A stretch of DNA of 64,000 nucleotides from Patescibacteria group bacterium (GCA_049322615.1 JBMORX010000001.1:6715-70714), one strand, 5' to 3'. Counted from the stretch's first letter, positions 4,440-56,127 are shown. The notes: generated by a model from the sequence alone, not told the origin. Numbers and translations: made by a program.

Positions 4440-4472
4440 ATAAGTTACTTAAGTCACTTAGGTAACTTAAGT
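4440..4472 (-). repeat. CTTAAGTNA repeat spanning the rpsE 3' end (it encodes KLKLPK) and the spacer before the rplO AUG
   Basis: ataagttacttaagtcacttaggtaacttaag. Confidence 0.8.
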
Positions 4473-4894
4473 TTTTTTAATGCCTCAAAAGTGGCATAAA
4501 CATTCGAGGCTTGATTCCGAGTTCCTAAGATTTTTGAAACAATGTCTCTAATTCCTGCCGCTTCAACCACTGCCCTGACTGCTCCTCCGGCAATAACTCC
4601 TGAACCTTCAGGCGCTGGCTTAAGCAAAACTTTCGCTGCTCCAAGTTTAACATAAACTTGATGAGGAATAGTTGTCTCTCTGGTAGGCACAGAAATTAGA
4701 TGCTTTTTAGCGTAAGTTGCTCCTTTTAAGACGGCTGCGGAAACATCAGGAGCTCGGCCTAAACCTACTCCAACTCGACCTTTTTTATCTCCAACAACCA
4801 CTAAAACAGAAAAGGAAATTCTGTTTCCGCCTTTGGTTTTTTTGGAAACCCGATTTACCTGAACTACTTTTTCCTCAAATTCTTCGTTTTCCAT
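4454..4894 (-). CDS. rpsE: 30S ribosomal protein S5
   Basis: S5 dsRBD and C-terminal domain ([17 protein letters not shown]). It is followed directly by rplO with no L30 gene. Confidence 0.95.
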
Positions 4895-4928
4895 AAGTTA
4901 CTTAGGTTACCTAAGTCACTTAATTGAC
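4895..4928 (-). repeat. CTTAAGTNA repeat in the rplR-rpsE spacer, immediately before the rpsE AUG
   Basis: aagttacttaggttacctaagtcacttaattgac. Confidence 0.8.
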
Positions 4929-5222
4929 TTAGAACTCTAACCCTCCTTCCCTGGCTCCTTCGGCTAGGGCTTTTACTCGACCATGATATTTAAATCTTCC
5001 TCGGTCAAAATAGACTTTTTTTATACCTTTTTTCAAGGCTTCCTCGGCTAACAGTTTTCCAACCTGACGACTTCTCTCGATTTTACTTAAGTTACCTAAG
5101 TCACTTAAGTTACTTAAGTCGTTTACCGCCACTAAAGTCTGACCCTCCTCATCGTCAATAATTTGCCCATAAATATATTTATTTGAGCGAAAAACCGAAA
5201 GTCTCAGACGGGTTCTTTTCAT
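4929..5222 (-). CDS. rplR: 50S ribosomal protein L18 (contains an in-frame 9-bp-periodic repeat insert [11 protein letters not shown])
   Basis: L18 fold motifs ([17 protein letters not shown] ... [24 protein letters not shown]). Confidence 0.9.
5085..5128 (-). repeat. CTTAAGTNA repeat inserted in frame inside rplR (encodes [12 protein letters not shown])
   Basis: ttacttaagttacctaagtcacttaagttacttaagtcg, with a 9-bp period that preserves the reading frame. Confidence 0.8.
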
Positions 5223-9503: not shown

Positions 9504-9788
9504 TTAGGTTTTCTCCAAAATTCTTTTGACTACTTGTCCGTGACCTCGGAAAATTCGAGTTTGAGCAAATTCACCAAGCCTATGCCCAACCATTGCCTCA
9601 GTCACAAAAATTTCTTTAAAATCCTTTCCGGTATGAACTTGAAATTTGTGACCAACAAACTCTGGCGGAATCTGGCAGCTTCTTGCCCAAGTTTTAATTG
9701 GCTCATGAGAATCTTTGGCTTTTTGAGCCTGAACTTTTTTGAGCAATTTTTGATCAATATATGGACCTTTTTTAGAACTTCGTGCCAT
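9504..9788 (-). CDS. rpsS: 30S ribosomal protein S19
   Basis: MARSSKKGPYID ... GHKFQVHTGK. Confidence 0.95.
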   Translation of the reverse strand: MARSSKKGPYIDQKLLKKVQAQKAKDSHEPIKTWARSCQIPPEFVGHKFQVHTGKDFKEIFVTEAMVGHRLGEFAQTRIFRGHGQVVKRILEKT

Positions 9789-12188: not shown

Positions 12189-12225
12189 AAGTTACTTAGG
12201 TTACTTAAGTCACTTAAGTATTACC
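12189..12225 (-). repeat. CTTAAGTNA repeat immediately upstream of the rplC AUG
   Basis: ataagttacttaggttacttaagtcacttaagtattaccc. Confidence 0.8.
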
Positions 12226-12452: not shown

Positions 12453-12531
12453 CCAGTATAGTCTTACCACTCGCCTTTTCAGTATTATTCATACACGGCT
12501 CGTGGAGCGACCTTTGCGGGGCAATCGGCGT

Positions 12532-12840
12532 CTACATTTTGATCTCAATGTCGACGCCTGCAGGGAGATCGAGGTGTTGGAGGGAATCAATGGTTTTTTC
12601 CGTAGGTTCTAAAATATCAATTAAGCGCTTGTGAGTGAGAATTTCAAAATGTTCCCGGGCATCTTTGTCAGTATGAGGAGAAGTGGTAACGCAGATTAAT
12701 TTTCTCTGGGTTGGTAAGGGGATGGGTCCGGAAATTTTGGCACCTGAGGCTAGAGCCGCCTCCAAAATTTTTGAAGCGGCTTCATCAATAACCCGGTGAT
12801 CGTAAGATTTTAAACGTACTCTAATTCTTCCTTTAGGCAT
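12532..12840 (-). CDS. rpsJ: 30S ribosomal protein S10 (start taken at [14 protein letters not shown]; the longer track ORF starts further upstream)
   Basis: Canonical S10 sequence. Confidence 0.95.
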
Positions 12841-12928
12841 ATAATTTAAAGGGGTGGGGATGAGAAATGGGAAGTGGGTAAGATAAATCTCACCTCTCAC
12901 CTCTCACCCTCACCCCAAATTGTCAAAC

Positions 12929-14128
12929 TTAGGAAATTACTTTGGAAATCACCCCAGCCCCAACTGTGTGTCCGCCTTCCCGAATAGCAAATCTTAATCC
13001 TTCTTCCATTGCCACTGGTTGAATTAACTTTACCTTCATCTTGGCATTATCCCCTGGCATAACCATTTCTACCCCCGAGGGCAGAGTGGTTTCTCCAGTA
13101 ACGTCAGTAGTTCTGATATAAAACTGGGGTCTGTACCCGGTGAAGAAAGGAGTGTGTCTTCCTCCCTCTTCTTTGGTTAAAATATAAACTTCAGCCTCAA
13201 ATTCGGTGTGAGGAGTAATTGTCCCAGGCTTTGCTAAAACCTGACCCCGCTCAACATCATCTTTTTCAATTCCCCGAAGTAAAACTCCAATATTGTCTCC
13301 TGCCTGACCTTCGTCCAATGACTTTCTAAACATCTCAATCCCGGTGACAACTGTCTTTTTGGTTGGTCTAATTCCCACAATTTCAATCTCATCATTTAAC
13401 TTTACCTTACCTCGTTCAACCCGACCGGTAACGACTGTTCCCCGACCTTTAATTGAGAAAACATCCTCAATTGGCATTAAAAATGGCTTATCCAAATCTC
13501 GAGTAGGGGTTGGAATATTCTCATCAACCGCCTTGGTCAAATCCAAAATTGCTTTTTCTGCCTCAGCGTCTCCTTCAAGAGCCTTCAATGCCGAACCGCG
13601 AATAATCGGAATTTTATCCCCTGGAAACTGATATTTAGTCAAAAGTTCCCTAATTTCCATCTCAACCAAATCTAAAAGCTCTGGATCGTCAACCATATCA
13701 ACTTTATTTAAGAAAACGACAATTGCCGGAACATTTACCTGGCGAGCCAAAAGAATATGTTCTCGGGTTTGAGGCATTGGTCCATCAGGAGCGGAAACGA
13801 CCAAAATTGCGCCATCCATCTGGGCCGCTCCGGTAATCATGTTTTTGACAAAGTCCGCATGTCCCGGACAGTCAATATGAGCATAGTGGCGATTATCGGT
13901 CTCGTATTCGGAATGATGAATGTTAATAGTTACCCCGCGTTCTTTTTCTTCTGGAGCATTGTCAATGTCATAGAAATCCAAGGCTTTGGTTTTATTACCT
14001 GGCTGCTTTGATAAAACGTGGGTAATGGCGGCGGTTAGAGTAGTTTTTCCGTGGTCAACGTGACCAATCGTCCCAATGTTTAAATGGGGTTTGGTTCTTT
14101 CAAATTTTGCTTTTGCTGTTTCTGCCAT
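12929..14128 (-). CDS. tuf: elongation factor Tu
   Basis: [25 protein letters not shown] GTPase motifs; 399 aa. Confidence 0.97.
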
Positions 14129-14256
14129 ATTTTTTGAGTTAAAAAAGAGGTCTAAACCTCAAATCTTTTTGTATTTTACAGGCTTATTTTACAGATGTCA
14201 AGCCCCGATTGCAAATCGGTGTATAAGTTAAGTCAAGCACCTTATTTGTAACTTCT

Positions 14257-14290
14257 TTGTATCATTGTCATAGTACAATAGTACAAAAAC
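14257..14290. promoter_or_regulatory. operator-like motif copy A (contains TGTCATAGTACA, the reverse complement of the core), ~130 bp upstream of island-1 promoter
   Basis: tttgtatcattgtcatagtacaatagtacaaaaac. Confidence 0.55.
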
Positions 14291-14437
14291 TCGGCTTTAC
14301 ATGAGTATTTTCTCCCATGCCTTAATAAGTAGAAAGTCAAATCTGAGTAATCCCCAACCTTAGAGGTTGAATCTTATTCTCTATAACTTCTATAACTTGA
14401 TTTCAATCACCTTTCTTGTTATAATTTCTCCTCTAAT

Positions 14438-14602
14438 ATGTCCAATATGTCCACGGAAAGAGTTACTGATAATCAAAAAGATCAAAGAGTTCAGCAAGAA
14501 ATAGCCGATATTATGGCGTTAACTCCGTCTGGATCTAGGAAAGAGAGGCTGCAAAGAGGTGCAGAAATGGCTCAACTGTATGCTAGGCTTAGACAAAATT
14601 GA
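14438..14602 (+). CDS. small hypothetical protein (54 aa; MSNMSTERVTDNQKDQRVQQEIADIMALTPSG...), first gene of the plus-strand island between fusA and tuf
   Basis: My own translation; an extended -10 (TGTTATAAT) about 15 nt upstream; its stop overlaps the next ORF's start. Confidence 0.3.
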   Translation: MSNMSTERVTDNQKDQRVQQEIADIMALTPSGSRKERLQRGAEMAQLYARLRQN

Positions 14603-15042
14603 AGCAGGTTTCTGACCCTACAATTGCTCACCTAGCTTTAGGGGGACATCGTTTAGCAATGACAGAATTTGACAGGAGACTTGACGAAGGAAGAATCTTT
14701 CCGTTAGATGTATTGTTTGAAGCCGCAATGCCTCTTGCATCAAGCTCTTTAGTAACTAAAGGAGATAAGAGATTATATAAGCGGATAGTTGACGCCATTG
14801 AAAGACATGCACCAAGTGCCCCTCTTGAAGAAGTAGTGAATGCATTTGAAAAGTATGCAGGAAGCCAATTAGATCTAAACGTTGACCTTTTAGATGTTTT
14901 ATTAAGTTGTAGAGATGATGCCGACACTATTGTTTCGGCAGTTATAGCAAGCGCATCAGATAAAAAGTTTTTAATTTTAGATATGGAGCAGAGAAAAATA
15001 AGAGCGGGGATAATCCGAGACAGAAGGAAGAATAAGGTTTAG
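14599..15042 (+). CDS. hypothetical protein (147 aa, TTG start) in the plus-strand island inserted in the str operon
   Basis: Long ORF on the opposite strand to all its neighbours, noticeably more GC-rich than its surroundings; no recognisable family. Confidence 0.5.
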   Translation: MKQVSDPTIAHLALGGHRLAMTEFDRRLDEGRIFPLDVLFEAAMPLASSSLVTKGDKRLYKRIVDAIERHAPSAPLEEVVNAFEKYAGSQLDLNVDLLDVLLSCRDDADTIVSAVIASASDKKFLILDMEQRKIRAGIIRDRRKNKV

Positions 15043-15045
15043 CGC

Positions 15046-17154
15046 CTAACTCTTCCTCGCTAAAATTGCTTCTTGAATGTTTTTTGGGACTTCTTCATAA
15101 TGAGAAGGCTCCATATAATAGGCAGCCCGACCTTGGGTTAGAGAACGCAAGGTGGTGGCATAACCGGGAATCTCGGCTAAAGGAACCAAAGCAGTAATAA
15201 CCCTAACTTTCCCTCTTATTTCTGAACCTAAAATTTGGGCTCGGCGAGAAGACAAATCGCCAATGACTGTTCCCATAAATTCTTCAGGAGTGGTCACCTC
15301 AAGCTTCATAATTGGTTCAAGTAAAGTTGGCTCTGCTTGTTTGACCGCCGACTGTAAAGCCATACTTCCAGCAATCTTAAAGGCGATTTCTGATGAGTCA
15401 ACTTCATGGAATGTTCCATCATAAACCGCCACTTTCATATCAACTAAAGGATAGCCAATCAAAACCCCATTTTCCATTGCCTCCCGGGCTCCTTTTTCAA
15501 TTGCCGGAATAAATTCTGAAGGAATAGCCCCACCTTTAATTTCTGACTTAAATTCGCAGCCTTCACCCCTGCCTTTTGGTTCAACCCGCAAGAAACAATG
15601 ACCATATTGTCCTCGCCCACCAGTCTGTCTAATATATTTCCCTTCAGCGAAGGCTTTCTTTTTAATCGTTTCTTTATAGGCAACTTGGGGACTACCTGTA
15701 GTTGCTCCGACGCCAAACTCTCGTTTCATCCGATCAACAATAATCTCTAAATGTAATTCTCCCATCCCGGAAATTATTGTTTGTCCGGTCTCTGGGTCAG
15801 ATTTTATCTTGAAGGTTGGGTCTTCTTCAGAAAGTCGACCTAAAGCATAGCCTAATTTTTCCTGATCAGCCCGAGTTTTTGGTTCAATCGCCAAAGAAAT
15901 AACCGGTTCGGGAAATTTAATTGACTCCAAAATTATCGGATGAGCGGGATCAGCCAGAGTATCCCCAGTGGTCGTCTTAACCAGTCCGATAGCGGCGACA
16001 ATTTCCCCAGCAAAAACTTGGGAGATTTCTTCACGTTTATTGGCATGCATTAAAAGAAGTCTGCCAACTCTTTCCGGCTCGTGCCTGGTAACATTCAAAA
16101 GACTTGTGCCAGACTTAAGTGTTCCTGAATAAATCCGCAGATATGTCAGTTTTCCTACATGGGGATCAGTTTGAATCTTAAAAGCCAAAGCGGAAAAAGG
16201 CTCCTCGTTTTTGGGCTGGCGGGCTTCTTTCGAGTTTGTTTTTGGATTTATTCCCGAAACTGGCGGAACATCTAAGGGCGAAGGCAGAAAATCTACGACC
16301 CCATCCAAAAGTGGCTGAACTCCTTTATTACGAAGAGAGCTTCCACAGTAGATTGGCACAAGGCGAGAGGAGATAGTGGCTTTTCTAAGCGTCGCTTTCA
16401 AATCAGCCAAAGGCGGTTCCTCTCCCTTGAGGAATTTTTCAATTAAAGCTTCATCTTCTGAGCAAATTTCCTCAACCAGTTTTTTGCGAGCCTCTTCAAC
16501 CTCTTTTTCCATCTCCGCAGGAATTTCTTTCTCGGAAAATTTCACCCCTGATTCGTCCTGATCCCAAATTAAGGCTTTTTTCTCCAAAAGCAAAACCACA
16601 CCGCAAAAATCTTGTTCTTTGCCAATCGGTAAAGTTAAAACAGCGGGTTTTGCTCCAAGCCTGTCTTTAATCATCTCAATCGTTCGAGGAAAATTTGCTC
16701 CAAGTTTATCCATCTTATTGACGAAAACGAGCCTGGGAACATTATATTTTGAGGCTTGATGCCAAACAGTTTCCGACTGTGATTGAACTCCTTCTTCGGC
16801 ATCAAAGACAACCACTCCACCGTCTAAAACGCGGAGTGACCGTTCGACTTCGGCCGTAAAATCAACATGACCAGGGGTGTCAATAATATTTATTCTAGTA
16901 TCTTTCCAAAAGGTTGTCACTGCGGCGGAAACAATCGTAATTCCTCGCTCTCTCTCTTGAGCCATCCAGTCAGTAACCGTTGTTCCCTCATCAATATTCC
17001 CCAGTTTATAAGTTCGACCAGTATAAAAGAGAATCCGCTCGGTCGTCGTCGTTTTTCCAGCATCAATATGGGCAATAATGCCAATATTGCGAACTTTTTC
17101 AAGCGGGACAACTCTTTCTTTAGTGATTTCAATTTTAGGAACTTGTTGAGCCAT
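15046..17154 (-). CDS. fusA: elongation factor G
   Basis: [21 protein letters not shown] and the EF-G domain IV/V signatures; 702 aa. Confidence 0.97.
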
Positions 17155-17310
17155 AAATATAATCTAAAATTTAAAATGTATAATTGATAATTATTATATC
17201 TAATTTTAAGCGTACAAAAAACTGCTTTTCGCAGTTTTGCCTCGAAAGATATTTTAACAAAAACGAGTTTGTAATTCAACAACTTGAAAATATATGATAT
17301 AATTTAAAAA

Positions 17311-17799
17311 ATGACTAAGGTAATCTTTGATTCCTCTTCTTATCTAAAAAACAGAAAACGAAAGCGACAAATCCTGGCGCTTTTGGTTCTTCTGCCTCTT
17401 CTTTTTGGGTTTAGCCTTTTTTCTAACTTGCCTTTGGTCTTTGGTCATTTCCCCATGCTTATCCACCTCACCCGACCCCAGCCCTCAAAACGGGTTTACC
17501 TGCTTGGTGAACCGGTCACAATCAGTCTTAATATCCAAAATGTCAGTCCAGTCGGTTTTTCCACCCCTGTCTGTGTTCGGGAGATAGTCGCTCGGAAAAG
17601 CTACCATATTGGTTGCGTCCCTGAAGTAACTTTTGCTCCGCTTGACGGTGGAAGTAGGTTTACTTTCGAGGTTAGTCGACCAGCCCAACGTCCTGGCCGC
17701 CATTTAGTCATTTTTTCCTATCGCGATATTTATGGAAATTGGCATGAGATTATGGACTCTGGTCATCACCTCTTAAGGACCTCTTACCGCGTCAACTAA
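17311..17799 (+). CDS. hypothetical membrane-anchored protein (162 aa)
   Basis: N-terminal hydrophobic segment LLVLLPLLFGFSLF; located in the second plus-strand island of the str operon. Confidence 0.5.
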   Translation: MTKVIFDSSSYLKNRKRKRQILALLVLLPLLFGFSLFSNLPLVFGHFPMLIHLTRPQPSKRVYLLGEPVTISLNIQNVSPVGFSTPVCVREIVARKSYHIGCVPEVTFAPLDGGSRFTFEVSRPAQRPGRHLVIFSYRDIYGNWHEIMDSGHHLLRTSYRVN

Positions 17800-17914
17800 G
17801 TTGCCTCTCGCTTTTGAAGTTAAAACTTTCGAAAAATTCCCACCTAAAAGGCTTTACATCTGCGGACACAATTTCGTCCAATAGGATGAGATTATATCGA
17901 CAAACTTGACAAAA

Positions 17915-17950
17915 TTTTTGTATCATTGTACTATGACAGTGATACAAACA
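17915..17950 (+). promoter_or_regulatory. operator-like motif copy B overlapping a TTGACA promoter and ending at the ATG of the TrpR/YerC-like gene
   Basis: cttgacaaaatttttgtatcattgtactatgacagtgatacaaacatg. Confidence 0.6.
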
Positions 17951-18474
17951 TGGGAAGAACAACTTACTATCCAAGAATTAAAAGAATTGAAAAACTAAAA
18001 AGAGAAGAGATTTTGGAATTGATGTTTGACTTACTTAATGCCTTTCGCCTAGTGAATTCGCCCCTTGAGACGGCTTTTTTAATCCAAGATCTTTTAACTG
18101 CCAATGAAATTAAAAATTTAGCCAAAAGACTTCGTATCGCCAAACTTTTATTGGAAGACAAAACCCAAAGAGAGATTGCCCAGGAAGTCAAAGTAAGCTT
18201 GGCGACGGTCACCAAAGTTAATTTGTGGCTGATGCAGGGAGGAGAAGGATTCAAAAGAGTAATCTCAAAACTGCCAAAAAAATACCAAATACCAAAAAAA
18301 CTGCCGCCGCGACCACTAACTTTTAATCTTCCGGAAACTCTTTTAATTTTGGCTTCTTATGGTTTAGCCAAAAGACAGGAGAAAAATTTGGAAAAATTCC
18401 TTCAAGGAGTTGAAAATAAACAAATCCTTGATAGAAACCTTCGCGAAGTCTTTGATGAAGAATTCAGAAAATAA
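17950..18474 (+). CDS. TrpR/YerC-like helix-turn-helix DNA-binding protein (ATG at 17950 preferred over the track's TTG at 17926)
   Basis: LLTANEIKNLAKRLRIAKLLLEDKTQREIAQEVKVSLATVTKV follows the Trp-repressor-like YerC/YecD family pattern; the gene is flanked by operator-like motifs. Confidence 0.6.
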   Translation: MGRTTYYPRIKRIEKLKREEILELMFDLLNAFRLVNSPLETAFLIQDLLTANEIKNLAKRLRIAKLLLEDKTQREIAQEVKVSLATVTKVNLWLMQGGEGFKRVISKLPKKYQIPKKLPPRPLTFNLPETLLILASYGLAKRQEKNLEKFLQGVENKQILDRNLREVFDEEFRK

Positions 18475-18480
18475 CTCTTC

Positions 18481-18510
18481 TGTACTACTGTACTATGACA
18501 ATAGTACAAG
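18481..18510 (+). promoter_or_regulatory. operator-like motif copy C, downstream of the TrpR-like gene in the convergent gap with rpsG
   Basis: tgtactactgtactatgacaatagtacaagg, immediately followed by AAGGAGGT. Confidence 0.5.
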
Positions 18511-18550
18511 GAGGTAACAAGATAAAGTGAAAAAATCTAAACCAGGAAAA

Positions 18551-19030
18551 TTACCAACGAAAGTGAGCAAAGGCTTTGTTGGCTTCTGCCATCCGGTGGG
18601 TATCTTCTTTCTTTTTAACCGCCCCACCAGTGCCGTTTGAAGCGTCAATGATTTCTCCAGAGAGTTTTTCGGAAAAAGTAGGGAATTCCTTTGGGGAACG
18701 CTTTTGGGCAGCCTTAATTAACCAACGGATTGCCAGGGTTTCTTTTCTTTCTCCCCGAACTGGCATTGGCACTTGATAGGCTGCCCCCCCAATCCTTCTT
18801 GGCCGGACCTCCATCTGGGGTTTAATATTCTCCAAAGCCTGATTGAAGACAACTATTGGGTCTTTTTTTGTTTTCTCTCTCACCAGTTCAAAAGCCTGAT
18901 AGATTTGTTTTTGGGCAACAGATTTTTTTCCTGATTTCATTGTTCGGTTTATCAACTTCGCCACCAATTTTGACCCAAAGAGCGGCTCTTCTGCGATTTG
19001 TCTTTTTTTAACTTTCTTGTGCCGTGGCAT
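18551..19030 (-). CDS. rpsG: 30S ribosomal protein S7
   Basis: [39 protein letters not shown], an S7 N-terminus. Confidence 0.95.
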
Positions 19031-19502
19031 TTTCTCCTCCCTCTGGTTTTGGCTCTTCCCTAACTACAGTGGTTACTCCAACTGGCGCAACCACTCCAGA
19101 TTTTTTCGTCCCGTAGCGAGAACGACCTTTTTTGCGACCCAAAACTCCGGTCGTGTCGTATTTGCCCCTAACGATATGATATTTAACTCCAGGCAAATCC
19201 TTAACTCTACCGCCCCGAACTAAAACAATCGAGTGTTCTGCTAACTCATGACCAATTCCGGGAATATAAGCGGTTACTTCTTGCTTGTTCGAAAGCCTAA
19301 CCCGGGCAACCTTGCGAAGAGCGGAATTTGGTTTCTTGGGAGTCACGGTTTTCACCAGAAGGACGACTCCCTTCTTAAAAGGGCTTTTGAGTTCTTTCAT
19401 TCGTCTTTGCCTGGCATTAAAATATCTCCGCAAAGCTCCAGCCCGAAATTTCTTTTTAATTTTTTTTCTGCCTTTTCTTGTAAGTTGGAATATTGTTGGC
19501 AT
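19008..19502 (-). CDS. rpsL: 30S ribosomal protein S12 with a C-terminal extension overlapping the rpsG start
   Basis: [13 protein letters not shown] ... [12 protein letters not shown], the S12 core; the ~25-aa tail is unusual. Confidence 0.95.
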
Positions 19503-29412: not shown

Positions 29413-29520
29413 AATTTCATTTTAGCAAATCCAGGAAGAAACTTTATTATAGAACAGAGCGGGTATCCTTATTCCAATATTCTCAAGAGTTCGAGAATGT
29501 TTTTGAGAATGTTTGGAGAA

Positions 29521-29546
29521 TATATCATATATCGATATATGATATA
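29521..29546. promoter_or_regulatory. perfect 26-bp palindrome TATATCATATATCGATATATGATATA, with 12-bp tandem repeats (gagaatgttt x2.5) just upstream, in the leader of the 28471..29412 gene
   Basis: Reverse complement is identical; contains TGATATAT extended -10-like hexamers in both directions. Confidence 0.5.
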
Positions 29547-29603
29547 TGAATTCGTTCGTAAGGGATTCAGAGCAAAACAAATTTCGATTAAGATGGGTGA
29601 TTT

Positions 29604-33640: not shown

Positions 33641-34315
33641 ATGAGAAAGAAAAGGATAAATTTTAGCCTAATTTTGTTTTTACTTTTAATTCCTTCCCTA
33701 CTTTTAAACATCTTTCTTTTTCAAAAAACAGAAAAGCTAGAAGAAAACAATCTGGTTACAGGAGTAATTGATGGCGATACTTTTGTCTTAAAATCAGGAC
33801 AAAAGGTAAGATTAGGAAATCTTGACGCCCCAGAACTGGAATTTTGCGGAGGCAAAGAAGCCAAAGAAAGATTAGAAAAGTTAATTTTGGGCAAGACCGT
33901 CGAGCTTGATATCTTCTCCTATGGTGAATTCAACCGCCCCCTGGCTTTGGTCTATCAAAAGGGAACCTTAGTTAATGAAATTTTACTTAAAGAAGGTCTG
34001 GTCAGATATGACGGCGATCCCAGTCCTCAAAGAGAAAGACTCAAGAAAGCTCATGATGAAGCAGTTGAGAACAGAAAAGGGATTTTTGGTCCGCCCTGTC
34101 TTTCTTTAGAGCCTGATAAACCAGGTTGTCTTATTAAGGCAAATATTGATCGCCACAGTGGTAAGAAGATTTATCATTTTCCGGGCTGTAATGAGTATCA
34201 AAGCGTCAAGGTAGAAAAGGATTTAGGGGAAAACTGGTTCTGCTCAGAGGAGGAGGCGGAAAAAGCAGGCTTTAGCAAAGCTCTAAATTGTCATGGGAAG
34301 AGTTATAATGATTGA
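33641..34315 (+). CDS. membrane-anchored staphylococcal-nuclease (SNase)-like thermonuclease with a Cys-containing C-terminal domain
   Basis: N-terminal TM, VIDGDTFVLKSGQKVRLGNLDAPE SNase core, and a C-terminal CLIKANIDRHSGKKIYHFPGC...[13 protein letters not shown]...NC shared with the paralogue at 55369..56127. Confidence 0.8.
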   Translation: MRKKRINFSLILFLLLIPSLLLNIFLFQKTEKLEENNLVTGVIDGDTFVLKSGQKVRLGNLDAPELEFCGGKEAKERLEKLILGKTVELDIFSYGEFNRPLALVYQKGTLVNEILLKEGLVRYDGDPSPQRERLKKAHDEAVENRKGIFGPPCLSLEPDKPGCLIKANIDRHSGKKIYHFPGCNEYQSVKVEKDLGENWFCSEEEAEKAGFSKALNCHGKSYND

Positions 34316-55368: not shown

Positions 55369-56127
55369 TTACGGACAATTTAAAGCCTTGCGCCAACCGG
55401 CTGCTTTGGCTTCTTCTTCTGAACAAAACCAGCGTTCGCCCCGGCTCTCATCTATTTTGGTTTTGGCATAAGAACCACAAGTTTGAAGATGATAAATTTT
55501 TTCTCCAGAGGAGCTGATGTTTCCCTTAATATTACAATCAGCCGAAATCTTGCCGCTGGGGGATGGGCTGGAAACTGTTGGTGATGCCAAAGGACAAGCG
55601 GACCAAAGTCCTCGATTTTCTCTTCTGGCTTCTGCCTCGGCGGCAAGAATTTCAGTTTGATGTTTTACGTCTGGCGGATAGGTGTAAGAAGTGGCAAAAC
55701 CAAGTTTTACCAACTCAAGATTAACAAAGACGACTTGTCCTGAGCCTGTCGAAGGATCCACGTAAACATAGCGCAAAAGCCTGCCATACTTATCTTTGTC
55801 AGAAATATCTTTTTCCAAACGAACATTTTTCCCTTCAACCAATTCTTTATTCTTCCTTGAAGCCTCAACCCCAAAACATTGAACTGGTTTTCGGGGATCA
55901 ACTGTTTCTGGAGTATCAATCCCTAAATAGCGTACCCGTTCACCACCTTCGATTTCGATAGTATCACCGTCAATTACCCGAGTTACTTTAAAAGTTTCTG
56001 AAACTGGCAATGGCAAGGAAGATTTATTATCAATGTTTACTCGACCTAAAAGAAAACCAATCAGAAGAAGGAAAATCCCGCCAGCCAGAAAAACAAGGCT
56101 CTTTTTCTCAATTTTCACCAAAACCAT
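55369..56127 (-). CDS. membrane-anchored SNase-like thermonuclease, paralogue of 33641..34315
   Basis: [26 protein letters not shown] SNase core, and the shared C-terminal domain [26 protein letters not shown]...[19 protein letters not shown]. Confidence 0.8.

Follow-up and report, generated by a model that had tools for sequence, protein, structure and literature searches.

A TrpR/YerC-family protein of a Patescibacteria group bacterium, encoded inside the str operon and bracketed by two predicted operators

The closest described systems to the one presented here are the repressors of the TrpR family. YerC of Bacillus is HisR, a TrpR-family histidine repressor of Firmicutes with palindromic operators of ~20 bp; HisR proteins have fewer than 100 aa and a single domain, and they control the genes of histidine biosynthesis and uptake (PMC9413887). 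The present study concerns a stretch of 64,000 nucleotides from an uncultured organism of the candidate-phyla type, Patescibacteria group bacterium (GCA_049322615.1 JBMORX010000001.1:6715-70714; hereafter the window), in which the str operon is interrupted by two plus-strand islands, the first of which encodes a 174-aa TrpR/YerC-like protein (hereafter the regulator) between two copies of one palindrome. Almost nothing is known about gene regulation in bacteria of the candidate phyla radiation (CPR), and our literature search found nothing on TrpR-like proteins in this group; the analysis offers a testable pairing of repressor and operator. We propose, with a probability of roughly 0.7, that the regulator is a TrpR/YerC-family DNA-binding repressor whose predicted cognate operator is GTAyyAyTGTACTATGACArTrrTAC, that it represses its own synthesis, and that the gene and its bracket are inherited as one cassette. 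The novelty would lie in a CPR-specific TrpR/YerC subfamily with a C-terminal helix and a predicted operator at each end of the gene, found recurrently inside core operons. The features on which the proposal is built are the following, in window coordinates.

17906-17934, plus strand: predicted regulator promoter, TTGACA (17906-17911), 17-nt spacer, TACTAT (17929-17934); this -10 box is the centre of site 2
17915-17950, plus strand: site 2, promoter-proximal predicted operator; its palindrome (17917-17948) spans the -10 box with the spacer before it and the expected start of transcription
17950-18474, plus strand: regulator gene, TrpR/YerC family, 174 aa (PF01371, TIGR02531, PDB profiles, AlphaFold, Foldseek)
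18481-18510, plus strand: site 3, stop-proximal predicted operator, 6 nt past the TAA, without a -35 box, in the gap where the 3' ends of the regulator gene and of rpsG converge
14257-14290, minus strand: site 1, solo predicted operator with the exact core, in the divergent intergenic region between tuf and the second island (island 2)

A preliminary description of this DNA had recognised a TrpR/YerC-like helix-turn-helix protein in the second gene of the first island, and profile and structure comparisons agree on this assignment. Residues 33-107 correspond to positions 11-86 of the 88 of the Pfam profile Trp_repressor PF01371 (E 1.6e-17, 63.8 bits against a cut-off of 27), the NCBIfam model TIGR02531 (yecD_yerC) is passed marginally with 46.4 bits against 42.2, and the search of PDB profiles returned 3FRW, 3G1C and 3KOR; the TrpR equivalog TIGR01321 failed, with 36.4 bits against 67.25. 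In the AlphaFold model (pLDDT 88.5), a TrpR fold (residues ~12-106) is followed by a Pro-rich linker and one C-terminal helix of 47 residues. When this model was submitted to Foldseek, the top 27 matches were all TrpR or TrpR-like chains (probability 0.99-1.00, target-normalised TM 0.59-0.77), the YerC/HisR-like 3FRW, 3G1C and 3KOR coming first and E. coli TrpR after them. The regulator is 100% identical to an NCBI protein from a metagenome-assembled genome (MAG) named 'Patescibacteria group bacterium', where it is annotated as YerC/YecD family, and more than 300 homologues were found, every named one of which comes from MAGs of Microgenomates, Woesebacteria or Levybacteria. The C-terminal extension of ~70 residues (107-174), including the Pro-rich linker, is conserved in more than 100 relatives. 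The conserved N-terminus MGRTTYY places the start at ATG 17950, and a TTG start at 17926 was discarded. Neither Pfam and NCBIfam nor the AlphaFold model and Foldseek revealed a nuclease, recombinase, transposase, HUH/Y1 or other catalytic domain in the regulator, and it has no significant PHROG match.

The 12-nt core TGTACTATGACA is present without mismatch at 14266-14277 (minus strand), 17927-17938 (plus strand) and 18489-18500 (plus strand), where 0.08 occurrences are expected in the 64 kb that the motif scan of the source genome covers. No extra copy appears when one mismatch is allowed, none of 100 shuffles reaches three copies, and the 19 matches obtained at up to three mismatches are within chance expectation. 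The earlier claim that three exact 12-mers are unlikely by chance is therefore upheld, as is the larger conserved pattern seen around the core, for the similarity among the three sites extends over ~34 nt and forms the imperfect palindrome given above. Site 1 is 91% complementary to site 2 over 34 nt and 84% to site 3 over 43 nt, and all three sites lie in the path of minus-strand transcription from rpsG through fusA to tuf. Three trivial origins were rejected: chance is excluded by the window counts and by the 20-mer comparison and cross-locus matching described below, a general genomic repeat does not fit only three copies in 64 kb, all inside a region of 4.3 kb, and an inversion between sites 1 and 3, with their 43-nt inverted arms, is superfluous because fusA already stands in its ancestral order and orientation. 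A metagenome-wide scan for AYTGTACTATGACARTR gave 120 single matches. The handful with the full motif belong to other organisms; of those inspected (all but L141), the ones at 54-71% GC lie upstream of GntR/YtrA-type or unrelated genes, and L146 (44% GC) has no recognisable gene. L129 (69% GC) carries the core only.

Site 2 is the position with the clearest functional implication, since its palindrome ends 2 nt before ATG 17950 and overlaps the predicted promoter. A phylogenetic footprint was obtained by aligning the four closest loci, namely the window and the orthologue contigs L040, L041 and L042, whose proteins are 77-88% identical. Upstream conservation is limited to the TTGACA, the palindrome and the ATG, the TTGACA being invariant and at the same distance from the site in L040, L041 and L042; downstream of the stop codon, the palindrome is the only conserved block. 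The overlap of promoter and site, together with this footprint, makes autoregulation the best reading of site 2, as the preliminary description had expected from a TTGACA promoter and an operator-like site abutting the regulator's ATG.

The arrangement of a palindrome at each end of the gene is not particular to the window. It was surveyed in 39 Microgenomates/Levybacteria loci from species-representative genomes in addition to the window, and a direct search found it in 29 of the 39 and in the window itself, with one palindrome on or just before the start codon and the second overlapping the stop codon or 0-90 nt after it. An unbiased 20-mer comparison of the upstream and stop regions gave at least 17/20 identical positions in 27 of 36 assessable loci, against background maxima of no more than 16 apart from 18 in L003, a known solo site, and 17 in L036. 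Cross-locus matching recovered the second copy in five further loci, which brings the bracket to at least 34 of 39; of all such matches in 665 kb, nearly every one fell on regulator-flanking or known solo positions, the sole new place being L038:5555. Ten loci have a perfect TTGACA ahead of the upstream site, and no locus has one ahead of the downstream site. Beyond the downstream copy, the next gene is convergent in roughly half of the loci and points in the same direction in the others, a mixed orientation which indicates that the second copy belongs to the regulator gene and not to the neighbour. The palindrome varies by lineage and, within a genome, by paralogue, but the two copies of one gene always agree; genomes hold a few divergent paralogues with distinct palindromes, not identical copies. 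Each locus has two to four predicted operators, and the nine solo copies that were tabulated all lie between called open reading frames (ORFs). Solo sites adjoin tuf, KsgA, SNase, HAD, methyltransferase, AbiEii and MerR-type genes. The comparison of loci thus shows the bracket as an inherited property of the whole Microgenomates/Levybacteria subfamily, in which the gene and its two predicted operators would behave as one cassette.

In the closest orthologues, the two copies of the palindrome change together. In five contigs (L040, L041, L042, L170 and L171) encoding proteins 74-88% identical to the regulator, the gene is flanked by the same core or by a core altered in both copies together, as with TGTACTATAAC in both copies of L170 and TGTAGTAyGACA in both copies of L171. 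Across the family, recognition helices of the form S[LI]ATVTK occur with palindromes of the GTACTAGTAC-type centre, and SH[GA]T[IV]AK with CTAC[AG]TAG. Many family sites are perfect palindromes through the centre, without a loop, as expected for a dimer on DNA; that of L011 is TGTATCACTGTACTAGTACAGTGATACA.

The comparison with the described repressors reveals both kinship and departure. YerC/YecD (HisR; 3KOR, 3G1C, 3FRW) is the best match in sequence and fold, and the recognition helix is conserved (VSLATVTKV in the regulator, ASTATISRV in YerC/HisR); as in HisR, the predicted operators are palindromes with a length of ~20 bp or more. However, YerC/YecD proteins are single-domain and of ~90-110 aa, whereas the regulator has 174 aa with its Pro-rich linker and 47-residue C-terminal helix, and whereas HisR operators are located at histidine biosynthesis and transport genes, the sites of the regulator flank its own gene and no his gene is present among the 132 neighbouring genes examined. 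With E. coli TrpR the regulator shares the fold (Foldseek 1TRR, 1TRO, 3WRP) and a predicted autoregulation through an operator at its own promoter. The perfect operator of L011, with its GTACTAGTAC centre, resembles the GTACT...AGTAC arms of the E. coli operators, of which GTACTCTTTAGCGAGTAC was read upstream of trpR, and we presume that this likeness extends to the E. coli trp operator itself. In contrast to the regulator, E. coli TrpR has no C-terminal extension, and trpR has one upstream operator without a copy after the stop codon (best chance match 11/18). The operator bracket around the regulator's own gene is a feature of this family that has not been described for HisR/YerC or for the known Trp repressors.

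At the mechanistic level, protein bound to site 2 would very probably occlude RNA polymerase from the spacer, the -10 box and the transcription start, resulting in negative autoregulation. Site 3 would most likely provide the regulator with a second anchoring point, either to close a repression loop of ~560 bp by way of the long C-terminal helix or to serve as a protein roadblock. A roadblock would keep the regulator transcript from extending antisense into rpsG and, conversely, keep antisense read-through from rpsL-rpsG out of the regulator gene. More tentatively, site 1 may join this loop or roadblock, or may modulate tuf or island 2, its position favouring none of these. The loop recalls the repressors LacI (O1/O2/O3), lambda CI (OL-OR), DeoR and GalR, which likewise use several near-identical sites hundreds of bp apart, one on a promoter and the others promoter-less; those belong to unrelated protein families, however, and their auxiliary operators serve a target operon, whereas here the sites bracket the regulator's own gene. 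In LacI, a C-terminal helix mediates higher-order assembly, and the modelled C-terminal helix of the regulator could do the same.

Several points weigh against the proposal. Since phylogeny confounds the co-variation between recognition helix and palindrome, this link counts only as support; the roles given to sites 1 and 3 are inferred from position alone, and site 1 overlaps neither the tuf nor the island-2 predicted promoter; no single roadblock rationale fits both the convergent and the co-directional genes that follow the bracket. Moreover, CPR bacteria generally lack the Trp and His pathways, which the known family members control. If the regulator were only an autoregulated repressor with a spare site, it would be a modest addition to the TrpR family. 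The subfamily is defined by a layout of its own, with a predicted operator on the promoter, a second at the stop codon and the C-terminal helix, and if the bracket is a loop or a roadblock, it would constitute a compact insulator or valve design and hint at how tiny genomes tolerate or exploit antisense genes in ribosomal operons.

The cassette is found in different places from one relative to the next.

Window: between rpsG and fusA
L042: beside rpsG
L040: in the 16S-23S spacer
L041: beside SNase
L170: beside LAGLIDADG ORFs
L001: between rpsJ and rplC, accompanied by NUDIX and FtsJ-like genes
L004-L006: downstream of rpsE and ahead of secY (L005 stops short of secY)
L019: after rplJ-rplL
Levybacteria: between zwf/tRNA_bind and gnd (shown for L027; gnd also in L028)

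No target gene is common to all loci, the neighbours being heterogeneous except for zwf-tRNA_bind and gnd and for the SNase gene of L004 and L006, which share a solo site upstream of it. Of the two SNase homologues of the window, that at 33641-34315 has no site nearby, and that at 55369-56127 has no core match nearby at up to three mismatches. In L027, one of the Levybacteria loci L026-L034, the cassette lies between zwf, encoding glucose-6-phosphate dehydrogenase (G6PD), with a tRNA_bind-domain gene, and gnd, encoding 6-phosphogluconate dehydrogenase (6PGD). Among the 132 neighbouring genes, the G6PD domain and the 6PGD domain each have 6-7 matches, so that the zwf-gnd synteny appears recurrent, and this hints at a pentose-phosphate target for the Levybacteria subgroup. 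The upstream neighbour in L042 looks PRAI-like by eye and has no Pfam match. Some further observations concern single loci. Within the stretch 1-7698 of L040, two predicted operators (1715 and 1770) lie upstream of the gene and one (2337) downstream, in the 16S-23S spacer of the rRNA operon together with two tRNA genes; a LAGLIDADG ORF stands between 23S and 5S, and a fourth predicted operator is found at 9747, after an S1-domain gene. Genes for rRNA methyltransferases diverge from the regulator's promoter-operator in L001 (6367-6906, FtsJ/RlmE-like) and L004 (9089-9934, KsgA/RrnaAD), the KsgA gene of L004 itself lying between two operator copies. Between SNase and the regulator gene of L041, 1.25 kb (1549-2806) contain no called gene, are relatively GC-rich with many short inverted repeats, and gave nothing at the Rfam gathering threshold.

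It can be hypothesised from these positions that the gene with its two operators forms a self-contained 'transcription valve', mobile in the course of evolution, in translation operons and in the Levybacteria zwf-gnd locus, a speculative extension that we regard as rather unlikely. The unit would have been inserted repeatedly into the str, S10, spc, rplJL and rRNA operons of Microgenomates; bound at either end of its gene, probably in response to a ligand and possibly with the C-terminal helix as a bridge, the protein would block read-through, and fusA, tuf, secY, 23S rRNA and gnd would thereby be uncoupled from upstream promoters. Such a valve would mean a nutrient-responsive tuning of the synthesis of the translation machinery in reduced, auxotrophic bacteria.

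The same positions raise the question of whether the cassette represents a small element of mobile or selfish character or a descendant of one, with the palindromes as terminal recognition sequences and the solo sites as footprints of excision or recombination. The gene and both palindromes do move together, lying in different places in orthologues with 74-88% identical proteins, and deeper relatives are found at rpsJ|rplC, at rpsE|secY, after rplJ-rplL and at zwf|gnd; promoter-less solo copies exist; and the Logan contig L172, an independent assembly of window positions 12476-17947 at 100% identity, stops exactly at the last base of the site 2 palindrome. Assembly breaks of this type are typical at repeats. 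The layout is also that of the REP/RAYT and IS200/IS605 elements, in which a gene lies between two palindrome copies, solo palindromes are intergenic and the location is variable. The regulator, however, was found to contain only the TrpR fold and one helix, without the HUH/Y1 domain of those elements or any nuclease, recombinase or transposase domain, and no high-copy dispersal is seen in the 64 kb or in the fetched loci, a genome holding a few divergent paralogues with different palindromes instead of identical copies. The -35 box needed for expression lies outside the palindrome, and direct reading revealed no target-site duplication beside sites 2 and 3. We therefore consider a mobile origin improbable as a replacement for the repressor-operator cassette.

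A third possibility is that the palindromes work at the RNA level, as a 5'/3' pair of hairpins by which the regulator mRNA is delimited, stabilised, terminated or processed, for example by its excision from an operon or rRNA precursor. A stem of ~10 bp can be folded at each site, the two copies are mutually complementary and bracket the ORF as rRNA processing stalks do, the L040 cassette lies inside an rRNA operon, and the Levybacteria palindrome is flanked by AAAG...CTTT, like a bidirectional terminator. Nevertheless, the palindrome encloses the predicted -10 box in L015-L017 as well as in the window group, which means that transcription would begin in the right arm, precluding the 5' hairpin. 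Mismatches between the arms have no G.U bias (54 A.C against 32 G.T), and the many loopless perfect palindromes are equally at odds with a hairpin. The flanks of the window-type sites read TTTG...CAAA without a 3' U-tract; their stems are AT-rich, and the scan for intrinsic terminators, which looks for a GC-rich stem and a U-tract, called none of the three sites. The covariance models of Rfam 15 gave no match at the gathering score across the 64-kb window. A role in RNA alone would also leave the match between palindrome type and recognition helix unexplained, and we hold this alternative to be very unlikely beside a DNA-binding repressor.

The remaining features of the region bear on the surroundings of the cassette and on the control of other genes.

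12532-12900, minus strand: rpsJ (NCBIfam equivalog)
12929-14128, minus strand: tuf (NCBIfam equivalog)
14173-14201, minus strand: predicted tuf promoter TTGACA-17-TAAAAT, 11/12 consensus positions, a consensus match only
14397-14425, plus strand: predicted island-2 promoter TTGATT-17-TATAAT, with TG before the -10 box, which ends 12 nt before ATG 14438
14438-15042, plus strand: island 2, a single gene of ~201 aa according to the homologue alignment, read as ORFs of 54 aa and 147 aa with a -1 frameshift at 14599-14602
15046-17154, minus strand: fusA (EF-G; TIGR00484, 1054 bits), with plus-strand DNA on both sides, apart from rpsG and tuf
17311-17799, plus strand: 162-aa hypothetical protein with an N-terminal hydrophobic segment; predicted promoter 17276-17303
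18551-19030, minus strand: rpsG (TIGR01029), with rpsL the upstream part of the str operon, transcribed toward site 3
19008-19502, minus strand: rpsL (TIGR00981)

ORF calls and NCBIfam equivalogs, all above their cut-offs, give the str-type order rpsL-rpsG-fusA-tuf-rpsJ on the minus strand and confirm that it is interrupted by plus-strand genes between rpsG and fusA (17311-17799 and 17950-18474) and between fusA and tuf (14438-14602 and 14599-15042). The suggestion that the islands are lineage-specific also holds, as the fusA-tuf gap of L001 measures 246 nt and contains no island. The two islands are best described as independent insertions, specific to the lineage, by which the str operon is divided into three units (rpsL-rpsG, fusA and tuf-rpsJ...), and a consensus-type promoter is found near each of the three.

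The island proteins other than the regulator have no Pfam, NCBIfam or PHROG family match. The 162-aa protein has eight homologues with 59-72% identity, encoded in unrelated neighbourhoods without the regulator, near which the motif has only one match, with two mismatches (L043); judged from these neighbourhoods, its gene is not part of the regulator cassette and has no predicted site of its own. Island 2 had been taken for unknown genes, and turns out instead to be one frameshifted gene of ~201 aa belonging to a small uncharacterised family. A HMMER search of 1.84 billion representatives returned 23 related proteins; in an alignment with eight relatives of ~170-206 aa, the 147-aa ORF matches from about their residue 35-65, and the fused translation aligns end to end, P0132 being 56% identical across the junction. 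The junction at 14599-14602 reads ..CAA AAT|TTG AAG.. and is identical in L172. It may represent a pseudogene, a programmed frameshift or an assembly error shared by both assemblies.

These data bear directly on the preliminary model of a small regulon, a conventional repressor that shuts down its own gene together with island 2, the edges of the islands being marked by sites 1 and 3. The part that concerns the regulator's own gene stands, with site 2 on the promoter and supported by the footprint; the part that concerns island 2 is not supported. Three near-identical sites within 4.3 kb, one of them in the intergenic region upstream of island 2, speak in its favour, but site 3 is accounted for by the family-wide bracket, island 2 is frameshifted and has at least 23 detected relatives, and the 162-aa gene has no site. 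The flanking of each island by a site, on which the model was built, is largely a coincidence of layout. Site 1 has no -35 box where site 2 has one (direct reading); it lies 107-140 nt upstream of the predicted -35 box of island 2 and 56-90 nt upstream of that of tuf. Since it overlaps neither promoter, control of island 2 by site 1 is possible but without positional support, tuf being an equally near candidate. As a whole, such a regulon is highly improbable compared with autorepression within an inherited bracket.

Some minor observations concern other parts of the window, in which a tRNA scan found nothing. The rpsL ORF has 164 aa against the 124 positions of the bacterial S12 model; it is extended at the C-terminus and shares 23 nt (19008-19030) with the start of rpsG. 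In the tuf leader, between the predicted promoter and the ATG, a terminator-like hairpin GAGGTTTAGACCTC followed by T6 (14147-14160, minus strand) could be an attenuator or leader structure. A second repeat family, unrelated to the sites of the regulator, consists of tandem 9-bp units AAGTNACTT, each a mini-palindrome, in arrays of three to five units.

933-968: array of AAGTNACTT units
4442-4477: array of the same units
4895-4930: array of the same units
5080-5124: array of the same units
12189-12222: array of the same units

The motif AAGTNACTTARGTNAC has 33 matches in the window where 0.83 are expected. All but one of the five arrays directly adjoin the start codon, which reads CAT on the plus strand, of ribosomal-protein genes encoded on the minus strand; rplC and rpsE are among these genes. 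The AAGTNACTT-type motif is absent from all 173 fetched loci, which include the ribosomal-protein operons of other Microgenomates. Finally, a perfect AT-rich palindrome of 26-30 bp, ATATATCATATATCGATATATGATATAT, is located at 29519-29548.

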